This document shows positions 10,083 through 21,779 of a DNA stretch of 64,000 bases, piece after piece; position 1 is the first letter of the stretch; every line of letters begins with the position of its first letter. The notes under the pieces were generated by a model, which saw nothing but the letters and a program-made list of their open reading frames with translations, did no database searches and was not told where the DNA came from. The position numbers were made by a program, and so were the translations under genes. The stretch comes from an uncultured Dehalococcoidia bacterium (GTDB taxonomy: Bacteria; Chloroflexota; Dehalococcoidia; Lucifugimonadales; UBA1123): assembly GCA_958296105.1 (NCBI GenBank), contig OY282441.1:2984773-3048772 (forward strand). The letters are read 5' to 3'.

Positions 10083-10544
10083 TCAGCCCAGCAGACGCTG
10101 CATCACCATGTCCCTCGACAGGTTGACTTGGCTGACAGCCCTCAGCTCGAGTTTCTCGTACAGGTCTCGCTTCACCGGGTCATCCAGCCTGCATACCACC
10201 ACAGGCACCATGAGAATATGATGGGCGATCTGCGCCGACAGCGCGTTGGTCGCGTCGCTGCCTGCCACTGCCACGAATATATCCGCTTCGTGAACATTCG
10301 CCGCGCGCAGGTGAGATTCCAGCGTGATGTCCGCCACTACGGGCTGGACCCTGCCGCTCGCCCCTCGCGCTTCGGGAAGGCGGTCGAAGGCTTCCGCCGC
10401 CCGGTCGAGTATGTGAACGAGGTATCCCTGATCGCCCAGCGCCTTCGCTATCTCGGCCCCCGTCCTTCCGCACCCGCCGACTGCGGCTCTTCCGGATTCG
10501 TTCCTGGCGACGGCATACCCCAAGCGGCTCGACATCTGCACCAC
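10083..10544 (-). CDS. TrkA-N (RCK N-terminal) NAD-binding protein
   Basis: AVGGCGRTGAEIAKAL Rossmann motif. 153 aa, adjacent to other Trk/Ktr genes. Confidence 0.65.
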   Translation of the reverse strand: MVQMSSRLGYAVARNESGRAAVGGCGRTGAEIAKALGDQGYLVHILDRAAEAFDRLPEARGASGRVQPVVADITLESHLRAANVHEADIFVAVAGSDATNALSAQIAHHILMVPVVVCRLDDPVKRDLYEKLELRAVSQVNLSRDMVMQRLLG

Positions 10545-13668: not shown

Positions 13669-14769
13669 ATGACCAGAACGGCAGGCGTCGAGAGTATGGC
13701 GGACATAGACGAAATCGTATTGAGCGTGGTGGACCAATCCCCCATGAGGAAGGGCGGCAAACCCTCCGAGGCGCTGCGCGAGACGGTCACGCTGGCACAG
13801 AGAGCCGAGCGCTTTGGGTACAGCCGATACTGGGTGGCGGAGCATCACAACTCCACGTCGTTCACCGGCACCAGCCCGGAGGTGCTGATAGGCCAGATCG
13901 CGGCGAGGACGGAGCGAATCCGGGTTGGAAGCGGCGGAGTGATGCTGAGCCACTACTCGGCGCTGAAGGTGGCGGAGCAGTTCAGAGTTCTGGACGCATT
14001 CTACCCGGGCCGCATAGACCTTGGGATAGGCAGAGCGCCGGGCAGCGACCGCCTGACCGCCGCCGCCCTCAGCCATCCCAGGCCTCCGGTGGACGTGCTG
14101 CGCGAGTTCCCCCAGATGGTGGGAGACCTGCTGGGGTTTCTCAGCGGCAGCATGGCGGAGGGTCATCCACTGCGCGAGATAAAGGCGCAGCCGGGCGGCG
14201 CGCCCGAAACGGCGCCCGAGGTGTGGCTGCTGGGGTCGTCCGACTACAGCGCGCAGCTGGCGGCGCATCTCGGACTTCCGTTCAGCTTCGCCGATTTCTT
14301 CGGCACCACCAGCGAGTACGGCCCGCGCATGGCAGACCTGTACCGAGACCTGTTCCAGCCGTCCGAGTACCTGTCGGAGCCGAAAGTCAACGTGGGGTTG
14401 CAGGTCATCTGCGCGCCCACTGAGGAGGAGGCAAGGTTCGTGGGCGCGTCTCGCAGCCTCAACAAGGTGGTATCGGCGCTGGGCTTGACCACCGGCGGAC
14501 TTCTGCCGCCGGAGGAGGCAATCGACTGGCCGCTGGACGAGCGAGCGCGGGAGTATATGGCCCAATCGACCCAGAGCTACATCGAGGGCGATCCGAACCA
14601 GGTGCGAGATGGGATCCTTGCATCGGCGGAGCGCTACCAGACTGCGGACATAGGGATCGTGACGAACTGCTACTACTTCGATCACCGTGTGAGATCATAC
14701 GAGCTGGTGGCGAGGGCGATGGGGATGGCTTCCGGCTGCGCGAACCCCTGCGGCATGGGCTACGGATGA
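13669..14769 (+). CDS. LLM-class (luciferase-like) flavin-dependent oxidoreductase
   Basis: 366 aa. LSVVDQSPM...ETVTLAQRAERFGYSRYWVAEHHN...GSGGVMLSHYS is typical of the MsnO8/LLM family. Confidence 0.85.
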   Translation: MTRTAGVESMADIDEIVLSVVDQSPMRKGGKPSEALRETVTLAQRAERFGYSRYWVAEHHNSTSFTGTSPEVLIGQIAARTERIRVGSGGVMLSHYSALKVAEQFRVLDAFYPGRIDLGIGRAPGSDRLTAAALSHPRPPVDVLREFPQMVGDLLGFLSGSMAEGHPLREIKAQPGGAPETAPEVWLLGSSDYSAQLAAHLGLPFSFADFFGTTSEYGPRMADLYRDLFQPSEYLSEPKVNVGLQVICAPTEEEARFVGASRSLNKVVSALGLTTGGLLPPEEAIDWPLDERAREYMAQSTQSYIEGDPNQVRDGILASAERYQTADIGIVTNCYYFDHRVRSYELVARAMGMASGCANPCGMGYG

Positions 14770-14933
14770 ATCACCACAACACAGGTTTGGATAGAGTAAT
14801 CGAAGGCGTGCGTTTTGGCAGCGGCATGGGCTACGGATGAATCACCACAACACAGGTTTGGATAGAGTAATCGAAGGCGTGCGTTTTGGCAGCGGCATGA
14901 GATACGGATGAATCACCACAACTAGGAGCAGCC
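14752..14933. repeat. 71-bp tandem repeat (about 2.5 copies) starting inside the last codons and stop of the LLM gene
   Basis: GGCATGGGCTACGGATGAATCACCACAACACAGG+TTTGGATAGAGTAATCGAAGGCGTGCGTTTTGGCAGC starts at 14752, 14823 and (partial) 14894. The paralogous locus at ~16005-16044 has one copy only and lacks the 37-bp TTTGGATAG... part. Confidence 0.85.
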
Positions 14934-15416
14934 GTGACACGAGACAATCGACCCCAATCGACTCAGAGAGAATCCATCTGGGCCATCGACCCCAAATGGA
15001 TAAACACCTACCTTGCCATCTTCACGTCTTTGAATACAATCAACATAGCCCGAGTTGTCTGGTACGAGACCACACAGGCAGCCCATGCGGGATGGTCTCC
15101 CGCCACTGACGCCATCTTGGAGAGCGTGGGCAAAGGCAGCATCGGCATAGCAGGATTCACGATAACAGTCACCGAAGCAGGGAGGTTTGCAATGGTACTA
15201 GGCGGAGCGCTGCAAGAGGCGCTGAAGAGGAGACGGGAGAGACAGATCGCCGAGGCGAGAGCCGAGGAGAGGGCGGAGACATGGGCAGAGGCATGGGAAG
15301 AGGTCAACGACCGCTGGCGTGCGTGGAACAGCCGTCGCCTAGACGCCCTTGCCAAAGGCGAGCCTTTCGATGAGCCGACGCCGGACATCGACGCGCCACC
15401 CGCAAACGGCCGGTAG
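14934..15416 (+). CDS. Hypothetical membrane/coiled-coil protein, paralog 1 (two predicted TM segments + ARAE/W-rich helical tail)
   Basis: GTG start 6 nt after an AGGAG SD. 160 aa. A near-identical paralog lies at 16045..16596, and the C-terminal module recurs as free-standing ORFs. Confidence 0.55.
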   Translation: MTRDNRPQSTQRESIWAIDPKWINTYLAIFTSLNTINIARVVWYETTQAAHAGWSPATDAILESVGKGSIGIAGFTITVTEAGRFAMVLGGALQEALKRRRERQIAEARAEERAETWAEAWEEVNDRWRAWNSRRLDALAKGEPFDEPTPDIDAPPANGR

Positions 15417-15430
15417 CAGGGAGGTTTGCA

Positions 15431-15691
15431 ATGGTACTAGGCGGAGCGCTGCAAGAGGCGCTGAAGAGGAGACGGGAGAGACAGATCGCCGAGGCGAGAG
15501 CAGAGGGGAGAGCCGAGGCATGGGCAGAGGCGAGGGCCGAGGGGAGAGCAGAGGGGAGAGCAGAGACATGGGCCGAGGTCAACGACCGCTGGCGTGCGTG
15601 GAACAGCCGCCGCCTAGACGCCCTTGCCAAAGGCGAGCCTTTCGATGAGCCGACGCCAGACGACGACGCGCCACCCGCAAACGGCCGGTAG
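15431..15691 (+). CDS. Free-standing C-terminal cassette ORF of the 14934 family (86 aa)
   Basis: Starts MVLGGALQEALKRRRERQIAEARAE and ends EPFDEPTPDDDAPPANGR, the same as the tail of the full-length genes. GGGAGG SD sits 6 nt upstream of the ATG. Confidence 0.4.
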   Translation: MVLGGALQEALKRRRERQIAEARAEGRAEAWAEARAEGRAEGRAETWAEVNDRWRAWNSRRLDALAKGEPFDEPTPDDDAPPANGR

Positions 15692-15745
15692 CCGGGAGGT
15701 TTGCAATGGTACTGGGCGGAGCGCTGCAAGAGGCGCTGAAGCAGA

Positions 15746-16021
15746 GGCGGGCTTCTGCCGCCGGAGGAGGCAATCGACTGGCCGCTGGACGAGCGAGCGC
15801 GGGAGTATATGGCCCAATCGACCCAGAGCTACATCGAGGGCGATCCGAACCAGGTGCGCGATGGGATCCTTGCATCGGCGGAGCGCTACCAGACTGCGGA
15901 CATAGGGATCGTGACGAACTGCTACTACTTCGATCACCGTGTGAGATCATACGAGCTGGTGGCGAGGGCGATGGGGATGGCTTCCGGCGGCGCGAACTCC
16001 TGCGGCATGGAACACGGATGA
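15746..16021 (+). pseudogene. Duplicated 3' fragment of the LLM oxidoreductase gene (copy of 14494..14769)
   Basis: Near-identical DNA encoding ...EAIDWPLDERAREYMAQSTQSYIEGDPNQVRDGILASAERYQTADIGIVTNCYYFDHRVRSYELVARAMGMASGGANSCGMEHG. It has no N-terminal body and is joined at ~15745 to a truncated cassette. Confidence 0.75.
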
Positions 16022-16044
16022 ATCACCACAACACAGGAGCAACC

Positions 16045-16596
16045 GTGACACGAGACAATCGACCCCAATCGACTCAGAGAGAATCCATCTGGGCCATCGA
16101 CCCCAAATGGATAAACACCTACCTTGCCATCTTCACGTCTTTGAATACAATCAACATAGCGCGAGTTGTCTGGTACGAGACCACACAGGCAGCCCATGCG
16201 GGATGGTCTCCCGCCACTGACGCCATCTTGGAGAGCGTGGGCAAAGGCAGCATAGGCATAGCAGGATTCACGATAACAGTCACCGAAGCAGGGAGGTTTG
16301 CAATGGTACTAGGCGGAGCGCTGCAAGAGGCGCTCAAGAGGAGACGTGAGAGACAGATCGCCGAGGCGAGAGCTGAGGCGAGGGCCGAGGCATGGGAAGA
16401 GGCGAGAGCAGAGGCATGGGAAGAGGCGAGAGCAGAGGCATGGGAAGAGGCGAGAGCAGAGGCATGGGAAGAGGCGAGAGCAGAGGTCGACCGCTGGCGG
16501 GAGTGGAACAGCCGTCGCCTAGACGCCCTTGCCAAAGGCGAGCCTTTCGATGAGCCGACGCCAGACATCGACGCGCCGCCCGCAAACGGCCGGTAG
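16045..16596 (+). CDS. Hypothetical membrane/coiled-coil protein, paralog 2 (183 aa)
   Basis: GTG start after a CAGGAGC SD. The N-terminal ~95 aa are identical to paralog 1. The tail carries 4 tandem EARAEAWE (24-bp) repeats. Confidence 0.55.
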   Translation: MTRDNRPQSTQRESIWAIDPKWINTYLAIFTSLNTINIARVVWYETTQAAHAGWSPATDAILESVGKGSIGIAGFTITVTEAGRFAMVLGGALQEALKRRRERQIAEARAEARAEAWEEARAEAWEEARAEAWEEARAEAWEEARAEVDRWREWNSRRLDALAKGEPFDEPTPDIDAPPANGR

Positions 16597-16610
16597 CCGG
16601 TAGGTTTGCA

Positions 16611-16799
16611 ATGGTACTAGGCGGAGCGCTGCAAGAGGCGCTGAAGAGGAGACGTGAGAGACAGATCGCCGAGGCGAGAGCCGAGGTCAACGACCGCTGG
16701 CGTGCGTGGAACAGCCGCCGCCTCGCCGCCCTTGCCAAAGGCGAGCCTTTCGATGAGCCGACGCCAGACGACGACGCGCCGCCCGCAAACGGCCAGTAG
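16611..16799 (+). CDS. Free-standing C-terminal cassette ORF of the 14934 family (62 aa, no internal repeat)
   Basis: MVLGGALQEALKRRRERQIAEARAEVNDRWRAWNSRRL...PPANGQ. The upstream SD is degraded to GGTAGG. Confidence 0.35.
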   Translation: MVLGGALQEALKRRRERQIAEARAEVNDRWRAWNSRRLAALAKGEPFDEPTPDDDAPPANGQ

Positions 16800-16926: not shown

Positions 16927-17619
16927 ATGTACCCACCAATCCACGGACCGTATAACTGCAATTCGAGGGTGTTTCCCACAAACTGCAAGAGTTGCCGGCA
17001 GTCCGTCTTCTACTTTTTCTGCGAACACGGCAGCAAGGTGTTTTTCGACCGCCTCGGCCCACCGTGGCCCGAACACCAATGCGTCGGGAGCGCATATAGA
17101 TCGTCGCCTCCCACTCCTCCGAGGCCCTCTGGCCGCAGTGCATGGCCGCAGCTGCGAGGGGTTGAGTTTAGCGTCCGGCCCGCTAACTACGACCTGCTGC
17201 CTGGGATGACACGCGGCTCGGAACAGGCAATCCGGAGAGTCCGAGAAGCGCGTGTGCGCCCGCGTGAAACGGTCAGGATGGATCCGCTAGGATCACTCGC
17301 CGAAACGCTGGCTGGGCGAGTAACCGATGTCCACACAGTGGATGTGGCAGACAGGCTCGGTCTCGAATCGAGTTCGGTCGGTGCCACTCTGGCGAGCCAA
17401 CGCTTCCCAGGGCTGCGAGCAGTACAGATTACGATTCTCGTGGACGAAATCCACATTGACCCAAGCGCCGAGGACCTGATGAGCTACACGTTCTGGATAC
17501 AGGCATCGAGAGATGCCGAGTCTGTCGTGAGGGATGACATCATCTACGTCGAAATCGAGCCTGTGGAGATGCTCGGAGCAGAAGCCCGGTGGGTCGCAAG
17601 ACGCATGGAGGTCATGTAG
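16927..17619 (+). CDS. Hypothetical protein with N-terminal Cys/His zinc-ribbon-like region
   Basis: 230 aa. GGGAGAG SD lies 5 nt before the ATG. The motif is CNSRVFPTNCKSCRQSVFYFFCEHGSKVFFDRLGPPWPEHQC. No family recognised. Confidence 0.5.
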   Translation: MYPPIHGPYNCNSRVFPTNCKSCRQSVFYFFCEHGSKVFFDRLGPPWPEHQCVGSAYRSSPPTPPRPSGRSAWPQLRGVEFSVRPANYDLLPGMTRGSEQAIRRVREARVRPRETVRMDPLGSLAETLAGRVTDVHTVDVADRLGLESSSVGATLASQRFPGLRAVQITILVDEIHIDPSAEDLMSYTFWIQASRDAESVVRDDIIYVEIEPVEMLGAEARWVARRMEVM

Positions 17620-19962: not shown

Positions 19963-20562
19963 TCAGACGCTCTGAGACAAGAAGTCGCGCAGCCTTCTGA
20001 AATGCGCGCAGTTTCGGCTGACTCTGGACTCGTCGACCAGTTCGAGCAGCTTCGCGCCGTCACTTACTTTGTCGTATCTGCGTTTTGCGCCGCTTGATCG
20101 CAAGCCCCGCTTGATCGAGTCGGTTAGCCGAGCGGGCGGAATCGACTCGGCGTTTTGAGGGTTGGGCAGCTGCTTGACGTCGAATCTGTGTCCAAAGCGT
20201 TCGATCAGAGCCTGCGGATCGGCTATGAACCACGATTCCATAGCCTGAACCATGAAGTTGAGCTGGCCATCATCGCATGTTGCGTTCGCGTCCCAAAAGT
20301 CGCGTGAGCGAAGAGTCCTTATGAAACCCGCAGTGCTTGGCACAGGCCCTTCGGAGTCTATCAGCAGTATGTTGAGATCGGACGGATGCAGTCGGCATGA
20401 CCTGATAAAGTCCTTGACAGTCTCGACGTTGGACCCGCCAGAGATCAGCTTGAATCCAATCCTCTTCTGGCGCGCCCGCTCCGCATGGGATTTCAGCAAG
20501 GCGTGGAAACCGGGTCTGAGATTGGCGTCCCCCTCGAAATGGATGGTTACTTGGGTTACCAA
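19963..20562 (-). CDS. DUF4276-like protein (possible divergent TOPRIM-type nuclease)
   Basis: 199 aa from a TTG start that overlaps the upstream ATPase stop (CGTTGGTAA). Motifs FEGD, ILLIDSEG and a C-terminal CAHFRRLRDFL. Family assignment is from memory of DUF4276 proteins that pair with AAA ATPases and needs HMM confirmation. Confidence 0.65.
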   Translation of the reverse strand: MVTQVTIHFEGDANLRPGFHALLKSHAERARQKRIGFKLISGGSNVETVKDFIRSCRLHPSDLNILLIDSEGPVPSTAGFIRTLRSRDFWDANATCDDGQLNFMVQAMESWFIADPQALIERFGHRFDVKQLPNPQNAESIPPARLTDSIKRGLRSSGAKRRYDKVSDGAKLLELVDESRVSRNCAHFRRLRDFLSQSV

Positions 20563-21779
20563 CGGTTGCCGCCAATTACTCCCTTCTTCCAAAGCTCGGC
20601 CAGCCGGTAGTCTTCCAGCCACTCGTTTAGCTCATCCTCTGGAAGGCGTTTCAACTGAGTGTCGCCGTCGAAACCCCTTTCACATACCATGATGACGTCA
20701 GGATCGACAGTGAACTGATCGACCAGATCCGGCGAATGTGTGGTTACGATCACTTGAGTACGCTCCGACGCGCCTCTGAGCAGATCTGCCAGCAGCGGCA
20801 TGGCGTTGGGGTGGAGCGCAAGCTCCGGTTCTTCGATGCAGACAAGCTCGGGCGGCTGCGGATGGCACAGAACGGTCAGCAGAGCTATGAACCTCAGCGT
20901 ACCATCGGACAGTCTGGTTGCGGGTATCGAGCTGGACATCCCCGATTCGTTGACTGCCAGCTGTATTGCGCCTCCGAACACGCGCGAGCGCAGACTGTAG
21001 TATGTCTCGTAGAAGCGGTTGAGATACTCGTCCATCGGTTTTTCGAGTCCACGAGTCTGGAGGTCGTTGACCATCAGGGCCAGGTTGCTGAAATCCTCTT
21101 CGAGGAAGCCAATGGGTCCGTCTGTTGCCTGTGGAAGGCGGGCAGGGCTGTTTCGCCCCACGTTCCAATTCCGGTAGAGCCGTATCGAGCCGAATTTGCG
21201 AGAGGTCTGCGTCAGCACGGGAAAGTTGACCGGGTCGCGGATCTCGCTCAGCACCGAGCGCGTGGGGGCGAAGTTTTCGGGGGTCAGCCTTGTGACAATC
21301 TCTCCATCGGAATCTTCGCTCTCGCCGTATGACCTGCGGGGCGAGACTCGACCATATCCGTTCTCCACGCTGAAGTAGTAGAACGGAAGCCGTTGGTAAT
21401 CGTAGTAGGGACGGATGTTCTCGAGCTTTTCCGCGGCGACTTCCATGCGCTCGTTGTTCTCTGCGAGCTGAAGATTGTAGATCAGCCGTCGGTCGGCCTC
21501 TTGCGCGCCTGTTGGATTGTCGAGCGTCGCCGTGACCTCTGCCACTTGGGATACTGCGCCCGGAGCAAGGTCTCCCTTCCACAGCCAGTCGGCGATTGGG
21601 CCATTGCGCCGAAAGAAATCTGCTAGGTCTGCCGGTACTGCCTGAAGCAGCGCGAACGTCTCGATCAGGTTGGACTTGCCGGATGCGTTGGGGCCGATCA
21701 GCACATTGAGAGGGCCAAGTTCTATCTTGACGTCCTTGAATGAGAGCATGTTCTTTATATCGAGCGAATGGAACAGCAT
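20556..21779 (-). CDS. ABC/SMC-type AAA ATPase (AAA_15/AAA_21-like)
   Basis: 407 aa. Walker A GPNASGKSN near the N-terminus, signature-like LSDGTLR, Walker B LVCIEEPELALHP, H-loop VTTHSP. Confidence 0.8.
   Translation of the reverse strand: MLFHSLDIKNMLSFKDVKIELGPLNVLIGPNASGKSNLIETFALLQAVPADLADFFRRNGPIADWLWKGDLAPGAVSQVAEVTATLDNPTGAQEADRRLIYNLQLAENNERMEVAAEKLENIRPYYDYQRLPFYYFSVENGYGRVSPRRSYGESEDSDGEIVTRLTPENFAPTRSVLSEIRDPVNFPVLTQTSRKFGSIRLYRNWNVGRNSPARLPQATDGPIGFLEEDFSNLALMVNDLQTRGLEKPMDEYLNRFYETYYSLRSRVFGGAIQLAVNESGMSSSIPATRLSDGTLRFIALLTVLCHPQPPELVCIEEPELALHPNAMPLLADLLRGASERTQVIVTTHSPDLVDQFTVDPDVIMVCERGFDGDTQLKRLPEDELNEWLEDYRLAELWKKGVIGGNRW

Follow-up and report, generated by a model that had tools for sequence, protein, structure and literature searches.

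Why does a bacterial chromosome carry, next to two genes for a putative membrane protein, additional copies of only the 3′ part of these genes, each with a start codon of its own? This question is raised by an array of five modules in a stretch of 64,000 nt (hereafter, the window) from an uncultured Dehalococcoidia bacterium (Chloroflexota; assembly GCA_958296105.1, contig OY282441.1, positions 2,984,773 to 3,048,772). The answer that we find fairly probable, from the comparison of related sequences, is that the long genes would encode a membrane-anchored form, that short soluble forms would be produced both from a start codon nested in the long genes and from satellite genes, and that the spacer of these proteins would change by slippage and recombination.

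The modules were searched for by their 38-nt head (GGTTTGCAATGGTACTRGGCGGAGCGCTGCAAGAGGCG), with up to three mismatches allowed. The head was found five times on the + strand (at 15184, 15423, 15698, 16295, and 16603); all five copies are exact, and none appeared in the 100 shuffles that served as a chance control. A preliminary description, made from the letters of the sequence, had listed five modules, and their positions and ATG codons (Table 1) were recovered, as were the product lengths of the four complete modules (74, 86, 97, and 62 aa). The order of the elements is a luciferase-like monooxygenase (LLM) gene, 71-nt repeats, the long gene F1, a short gene (86 aa), a truncated module head fused to an LLM fragment, the long gene F2 (183 aa), and a short gene (62 aa). 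The N-terminal 86 residues of F1 and F2 are identical. The same description called the cassettes promoter-proximal; however, the stand-alone copies are located downstream of the long genes and are therefore promoter-distal, the ATG of module 2 being 14 nt past the stop codon of F1. It had also assigned to each module its own Shine–Dalgarno (SD) sequence and ATG. All five ATG codons are present, whereas the SD of the last cassette is degraded (GGTAGG); this module 5 also has the shortest spacer and shows R-to-Q and D-to-A changes in its tail. The forms can be told apart by the peptide FAMVLGGALQEALK, specific to the long form, the N-terminal peptide (M)VLGGALQEALK, specific to the short forms, and the core peptide AEGRAEAWAEAR, specific to the cassette 15431–15691; the tail peptide is WRAWNSRRLDALAKGEPFDEPTP. 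An exact match for the protein of module 2 was found in public collections (P0041), and the exact look-up of P0001 gave no match. No terminator was predicted after the array.

The evidence that carries the above answer comes from the initiation site inside the long genes. A scan of one genome per species yielded 80 loci of the family, nearly all in metagenome-assembled genomes (MAGs) of Dehalococcoidia and often several per genome. The 124 modules from all loci were aligned, and the region upstream of the Met87 column was examined; M87 is invariant in alignment A1. A start-capable codon was present at the aligned position (within 2 codons) in all 66 long genes, taken one per locus (50 ATG, 12 GTG, and 4 TTG). 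For these genes, the 17 nt before the start were evaluated against the anti-SD sequence with a threshold of ≤ −9.5 kcal/mol. The threshold was reached in 55 of the 66 long genes (83%) compared with 2.1% of 2,468 control sites, namely, in-frame internal ATGs of other long open reading frames (ORFs) of the same loci, which bears out the earlier proposal that the internal Met of the long genes has its own SD. The spacing between the SD and the start codon is mostly 6–12 nt. The residues encoded over the SD vary (GR, GG, EV, EG, TEA, and KEA), whereas GGAGG itself is kept, and the Arg three codons before the start is encoded by AGG in 20 of 23 loci against a background of 10–13% in conserved neighbouring genes. 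At the annotated N-terminal starts, the best SD candidate has a mean of −4.0, and 12% reach −9.5. In every long gene, the internal SD and start are located at the end of the last membrane helix.

The strength of this site can also be seen in a second genome of the species, represented by L081, a 49.8-kb contig of another ENA assembly from another sample (ERZ19489085) that was reached via the homologue P0002. Among the 24 called genes of L081, the combination GGGAGG-6 nt-ATG (−11.8), which is the internal and cassette site, is the strongest ribosome-binding site (RBS). Taken together, the comparative data point to selection at the nucleotide level for an initiation site within the long genes; this makes production of a short isoform from the long genes the most economical reading, and internal initiation is, we infer, the best explanation of these data. 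In addition, each long gene contains a sequence similar to a promoter (15013–15040 and 16124–16151; TTGCCA-16 nt-TACAAT, with 10 of 12 matches, a consensus match only), approximately 150 nt upstream of the internal ATG. Such a site could yield a transcript for the short isoform only.

The short isoform also appears to have genes of its own. Approximately 25 of the 80 loci contain 1–2 ORFs of 50–100 aa without transmembrane segments, located 7–80 nt past the long gene. These short genes start at the homologous Met, usually behind GGAGG. The DNA identity of their heads to the neighbouring long gene is typically 0.8–1.0, and the homology ends 0–13 nt before the start codon; in several short genes, the SD is their own and bears no relation to that of the long gene. 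Within a locus, heads and tails have been homogenised. For about half of the short modules, the nearest sequence is that of their own neighbour; the others are closest to short genes of other genomes and are therefore old and conserved, with orthologous pairs in L052/L069, L047/L051, and L066/L073. Short units at different loci share 25–40% protein identity. The family further includes full tandem arrays (four copies in L001 and three in L027), partial copies that keep the last membrane helix (L041 and L067), and fused ORFs of two or three modules in which the Met of each module is kept (P0158, P0217, and P0284). On this evidence, the cassettes seem to be genes that encode the short isoform and not silent donors.

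The array of the window was shaped by a larger rearrangement. The regions 14483–14782 (the 3′ end of the LLM gene) and 15735–16034 are 96% identical, the last ~270 nt of the LLM gene being the source of the downstream fragment, and the regions 14924–15223 and 16035–16334 are 99% identical. The modules are part of a nested 1.25-kb duplication that carries a piece of the LLM gene. The third module, correctly recognised before as truncated, is cut ~40 nt in; it is the breakpoint of the segmental duplication, where a module head is joined to the LLM fragment, and not an independent decay product. An identical module/LLM junction is present in L081, and so the nested duplication is older than the split of the two strains. 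Through the 71-nt repeat, the final codons of the LLM gene and its stop codon are present in duplicate; the repeat ends at or just before the SD of F1, and ahead of F2, just the first ~31 nt of one unit is left (16002–16032). A 70-aa ORF (15809–16021) repeats the LLM C-terminus. A longer ORF (15706–16596, 296 aa) begins in the truncated module head, crosses the LLM fragment in another reading frame, and continues into F2. As its start codon in L081 is GTG and its frame there is closed, this chimeric ORF is probably accidental and was rejected as a real gene.

Table 1. Coordinates of the array and its flanking elements in the window.
Feature	Coordinates	Strand	Evidence
Luciferase-like monooxygenase (LLM) gene, 366 aa	13669..14769	+	Pfam PF00296, E 7e-37; context only
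71-nt tandem repeat, 2.4 copies	14750..14922	+	Tandem Repeats Finder (TRF), period 71, 98% matches
Long gene F1, 160 aa, GTG start	14934..15416	+	ORF; modest SD AGGAG 14924-14928, energy -6.5; 40 homologues
Module 1, inside F1; predicted short product, 74 aa	15180..15416	+	SD GGGAGG 15180-15185 (-11.8), in-frame ATG 15192
Module 2, stand-alone short gene, 86 aa	15419..15691	+	SD GGGAGG 15419-15424, ATG 15431
Module 3, truncated: SD, ATG 15706, ~12 head codons	15694..15750	+	Duplication breakpoint ~15742-15750; alignment A2
Duplicated 3′ LLM fragment, pseudogene (= 14499-14769)	15751..16021	+	Repeat D4, 96%
Long gene F2, 183 aa, GTG start	16045..16596	+	ORF; AGGAG at 16035-16039
Module 4, inside F2; predicted short product, 97 aa	16291..16596	+	SD GGGAGG 16291-16296, in-frame ATG 16303
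24-nt tandem repeat, 4.7 copies, (EARAEAWE)n, expanded spacer of module 4	16375..16486	+	TRF, period 24, 97% matches, score 210
Module 5, last stand-alone short gene, 62 aa, ends NGQ	16599..16799	+	SD GGTAGG 16599-16604 (-6.9), ATG 16611

How stable the array is can be judged from the two assemblies of the species, the window and L081. They are syntenic over 20 kb, with flanks that are 96.9–98.5% identical, and the 71-nt repeat is shared (in L081, 2.4 copies before the first long gene, F1′, and 1.4 copies before the second, F2′). L081 contains six module heads (one truncated, with GTG as the start codon) versus five in the window, and its complete modules encode products of 93, 78, 82, 78, and 65 aa versus 74, 86, 97, and 62 aa. 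Every positional counterpart differs in the length of the core, in multiples of 12 nt except for single 3-nt indels. For instance, the L081 module X6, the positional orthologue of module 5, has the same degraded SD and one extra 12-nt unit. All complete modules stay open in both strains. The array is structurally unstable between strains.

The preliminary description had regarded the core as similar to a variable number tandem repeat (VNTR). Its 24-bp EARAEAWE repeat was found again (Table 1), and the 12-nt steps between the two strains fit such a core, as does the wider family: the length difference between adjacent near-identical modules is a multiple of 4 aa in 20 of 29 cases, and the period of internally repetitive cores is always 12 or 24 nt. 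Spacer-length polymorphism is not peculiar to the window, since the members of the P0120 cluster (short forms, 90% identity) have lengths of 71, 75, 75, 89, and 104 aa. The most expanded spacer among the loci, at 10150–10848 of L010, contains about nine near-perfect copies of the 8-aa unit VASEVRAE. The exact module-head pattern was absent from JGI metagenome contigs.

Aligning the modules, a check proposed in the preliminary description, revealed mosaics with four-gamete violations. Among the nine complete modules, all four combinations were observed for tail codons 2–3 versus 7 and for codons 7 versus 28, at sites only 12–60 nt apart, which indicates that the modules recombine. The core of F2 in the window (EARAEAWE ×4) resembles that of F1′ in L081, and the core of the first cassette in the window (GRAE type) resembles that of F2′; the cores thus seem to have changed places between the two strains. 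The variable codons are synonymous in 4 of 5 cases in the head and in 6 of 10 cases in the tail (overall, 10 synonymous to 5 non-synonymous), and none of the non-synonymous changes in the nine modules affects the motif W..WN.RR...AKGEPFDEPTP.

These data bear on the explanation that, among the alternatives, survives best, although we regard it as unlikely, namely, that the stand-alone modules are recent partial duplicates without function, open because they are young. The region is prone to duplication, as the 71-nt repeat, the nested duplication with its gene fragment, and the truncated module demonstrate. The degraded SD of the last cassette in both strains and its tail substitutions would suit debris as well, and so would the half of the family short copies that are closest to their own neighbour. 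However, a Met-to-stop unit with an RBS recurs after the long gene in about 25 loci, called independent, at the protein identity of 25–40% given above. Moreover, some of the short genes are old and orthologous between genomes, the differences in heads and tails are mostly synonymous, and both strains keep their complete modules open.

The mosaics, the apparent movement of cores between positions in the two strains, and the homogenised heads and tails within a locus would also be expected if the expressed long gene or genes were altered by gene conversion from silent downstream donors. We consider this improbable; mosaicism is equally expected wherever near-identical direct repeats form an array. 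An SD and an ATG are present in every complete cassette, two of the three cassettes carry the strongest RBS of the locus (GGGAGG at −6), and short genes of other lineages have independent SDs and conserved orthologues. The variation affects only the length of a low-complexity helix and leaves the conserved tail unchanged; a cytoplasmic location is predicted for the variable region (KRRRERQ motif, short forms without a signal peptide), and there are two long genes. Of the likeness to gene-conversion or slippage-based variation systems suggested earlier, the mosaic modules and length steps are supported and the analogy with silent donor cassettes is not. Inverted repeats were not found, nor was a recombinase or reverse transcriptase in the neighbourhood, and an inverton, a shufflon, and a diversity-generating retroelement were rejected on these grounds.

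For membrane-protein targeting in E. coli, a role of SD-like pause sites has been proposed. The internal element, which each long gene carries where its last membrane helix ends, would agree with a programmed pause that aids membrane insertion of the long form, the start codon being coincidental. Nevertheless, there is little to favour such a pause over initiation: a start-capable codon is present at initiation-type spacing (ATG in 50 of 66), that codon is precisely the start of stand-alone genes and of fused modules, and short genes keep the SD in spite of having no membrane segment. An assembly artefact was a worry raised at first, and similar direct repeats are hard to assemble, with a single contig given. 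Mis-assembly of the array from a mixed population is very improbable, since the independent assembly of L081 contains the same order, LLM/module junction, and 71-nt repeat, and comparable arrays occur in dozens of genomes, many of them on megabase-scale contigs or complete chromosomes. An array of precursors of ribosomally synthesized and post-translationally modified peptides was rejected, since the core, a repeat of E, A, R, G, and W, lacks Cys, Ser, and Thr, conservation is seen at both ends, modules also occur in fusion with a membrane domain, and the only conserved neighbours are LLM paralogues.

As for the protein itself, the 160-aa F1 product has 40 word-indexed homologues of 149–188 aa without Pfam annotation. 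The profile search among 1.84 billion representatives revealed at least 1,293 clusters (50% identity) at E ≤ 1e-3 and 380 at E ≤ 1e-10. The preliminary description had not recognised the family, and neither this search nor curated databases gave a named family: no match above the threshold was obtained in Pfam, NCBIfam, PHROGs, PADLOC, PDB (profile), or Rfam, and Foldseek against PDB gave nothing with E < 1. The best sub-threshold matches were the Yae1_N repeat and Vpu (E 0.08). Weak matches to Yae1_N (GX3 repeats) were obtained for 8 of 70 family members, none of them window proteins, and cover the low-complexity repeat only. The tail motif was not found in the literature searched, and the members of the P0120 cluster are annotated as “hypothetical protein”. 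No relatives of the family were detected among viral contigs, and a phage origin was rejected for this reason. The family is chromosomal, uncharacterised, and found mostly in Dehalococcoidia. Outside this class, two loci (L053 and L061) are located on CATQHZ020000001.1 (5.0 Mb, labelled Poribacteria), and the short member P0120 is labelled Gammaproteobacteria. The MAG names of such members suggest sponge-associated communities, and their occurrence could mean horizontal spread within one habitat.

Structure modelling with AlphaFold2 gave a predicted local distance difference test (pLDDT) score of 54 in the first run, based on 27 close homologues, and of 91.6 with an alignment of 70 sequences. 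The latter model contains a helix at residues 20–47, a second helix at residues 54–141 that continues from the second membrane segment through the basic stretch and the repeat into the WRAWNSRRLDALAK part, and an extended tail (GEPFDEPTP...). The predicted fold thus comprises a two-helix membrane hairpin, a long helix with period-4 repeats (EARA/EAWE in the window; EGRA, EAVA, and AEGL elsewhere), and the conserved tail W..WN.RR...AKGEPFDEPPP. The KRRRERQ stretch follows the second hydrophobic segment, and the short forms have no signal peptide; together with the positive-inside rule and the AlphaFold2 model, these features point to a cytoplasmic location of the repeat and the tail. The long protein is probably a small inner-membrane protein with both ends in the cytoplasm.

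All ORFs of the 80 loci were clustered, and the only conserved neighbours were LLM-like paralogues (23 of 80 loci, in mixed orientation), which we attribute to the abundance of LLM genes in these genomes. Searches of Pfam, NCBIfam, PHROGs, and PADLOC gave no match for the product of a 230-aa ORF directly 3′ of the array (16927–17619); this protein has a Cys-rich N-terminus (CNSRVFPTNCKSCRQ...FFCEHG...HQC) and is also conserved in L081. At a distance of about 3 kb, a gene pair of the candidate anti-phage system HEC-01 was identified on the − strand (19963–21779; HEC-01A, ATPase, E 1.6e-132; HEC-01B, DUF4276-like, E 8.8e-43); no link with the array is evident.

According to the preferred reading, the one of nested and satellite short forms, each long gene would give two proteins, a tethered long form and a soluble short form consisting of the spacer and the tail. 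The strong SD and in-frame start, located where the helix emerges from the membrane, would direct synthesis of the short isoform, probably in excess, since the internal RBS is much stronger than that of the long form. Stand-alone cassettes, placed in an operon-like manner behind the preceding stop codon, would serve as extra genes for the short isoform. The spacer would grow and shrink in 12-nt units by replication slippage. Being direct repeats that are nearly identical, the modules would be added, deleted, and shuffled by unequal crossing-over and gene conversion, and the nested duplication that dragged along the LLM piece would be one such event. The tail is common to many paralogues in each genome, which hints at one binding partner for all of them, and the period-4 Gly/Ala-rich helix suggests helix–helix association. 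Our guess is that the long form acts as a membrane-tethered adaptor whose conserved tail binds this partner, that free short forms co-assemble or compete with it, and that the spacer length would set the reach from the membrane, or from an oligomer, to the tail.

Several points weigh against this reading. Sequence conservation alone makes the case for translation from the internal start; the loci are related by descent, so that the counts are not independent events; and 11 of the 66 long genes have a weak internal SD. The Met with the neighbouring Gly, Glu, and Arg could have a structural role, although the AGG bias argues otherwise, in part. Module 5, with its degraded SD and non-conservative tail changes, may be decaying. 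The variation within the species is known from the comparison of two assemblies. The adaptor function is a guess, and no conserved neighbour or partner was found at the 80 loci.

Internal-start isoforms are known in bacteria, with CheA, IF2, ClpB, and the carboxysome protein CcmM (M58/M35) as examples. In type III secretion, an in-frame internal start gives both the full-length protein and a C-terminal isoform of SpaO/YscQ (PMC13059759), an in-frame internal start was also described for Fha of a type VI system (PMC13389060), and such starts have been mapped by retapamulin Ribo-seq (bioRxiv 10.1101/520783). The family described here resembles these genes in having an in-frame start with its own SD inside a longer ORF and a predicted short product that corresponds to the C-terminal part and is likely to be in excess and to act with the long form. 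However, it has no sequence or fold relationship to them, its long form is a predicted two-helix membrane protein whose short form would lose the anchor, and its short isoform is encoded again by adjacent stand-alone genes.

The helix with period 4, rich in Gly/Ala and variable in repeat number among relatives, is reminiscent of the GxxxG/AxxxG repeats of FliH/YscL and of the deca-GX3 motif of Yae1 (PF09811, Yae1_N), whereas the membrane hairpin and the WN.RR...GEPFDEPPP tail are unrelated to these proteins. Similarly to coding VNTRs and contingency loci, exact 12- or 24-nt repeats are located in the ORF, and their copy number differs between close strains. Unlike in contingency loci, the repeat unit is a multiple of 3, the 12-nt unit cannot shift the frame, which excludes on/off switching, and the protein is predicted to be cytoplasmic and not a surface antigen. 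With pilE/pilS of Neisseria and vlsE of Borrelia, the array shares 5′-truncated copies beside full-length genes and mosaic exchange. However, the cassettes here are equipped with an RBS and start codon, the copies vary in spacer length alone and are identical in their conserved parts, the protein is predicted to be in the cytoplasm and not at the cell surface, and there are two full-length genes. What appears new is the combination of an unnamed family, loss of the anchor in the short form, and a nested start that coexists with satellite genes that are born, homogenised, and lost.

A bolder version of the above reading, which we offer as a doubtful possibility, is that Dehalococcoidia possess a widespread, unannotated system, present also on the 5-Mb contig labelled Poribacteria, in which an anchor gene and a self-renewing array of short genes would supply cytoplasmic “rulers” of varied length with one docking peptide. 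The spacer would then be deliberately hypervariable through 12-nt slippage and recombination between modules, and the outcome would be diversification of the length of an intracellular scaffold, not antigenic variation.

At the practical level, two strains at ~97–98% identity differ in every module, which makes the array a hotspot to be considered in genome assembly and strain typing. If the inference of internal initiation holds, a sizeable Dehalococcoidia family (>1,000 clusters at 50% identity) without a database name has an RBS inside the gene as its most conserved nucleotide feature. Since gene callers report the long ORF only, the short and probably more abundant protein would have been missed in every genome without a stand-alone copy. 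The family would also provide a natural series of graded helical spacers on one terminal peptide, a handle for finding its partner. Finally, these bacteria would add a clear case in which an isoform made from an internal start coexists and interconverts with dedicated genes for that isoform, which bears on how nested genes may evolve into independent ones.

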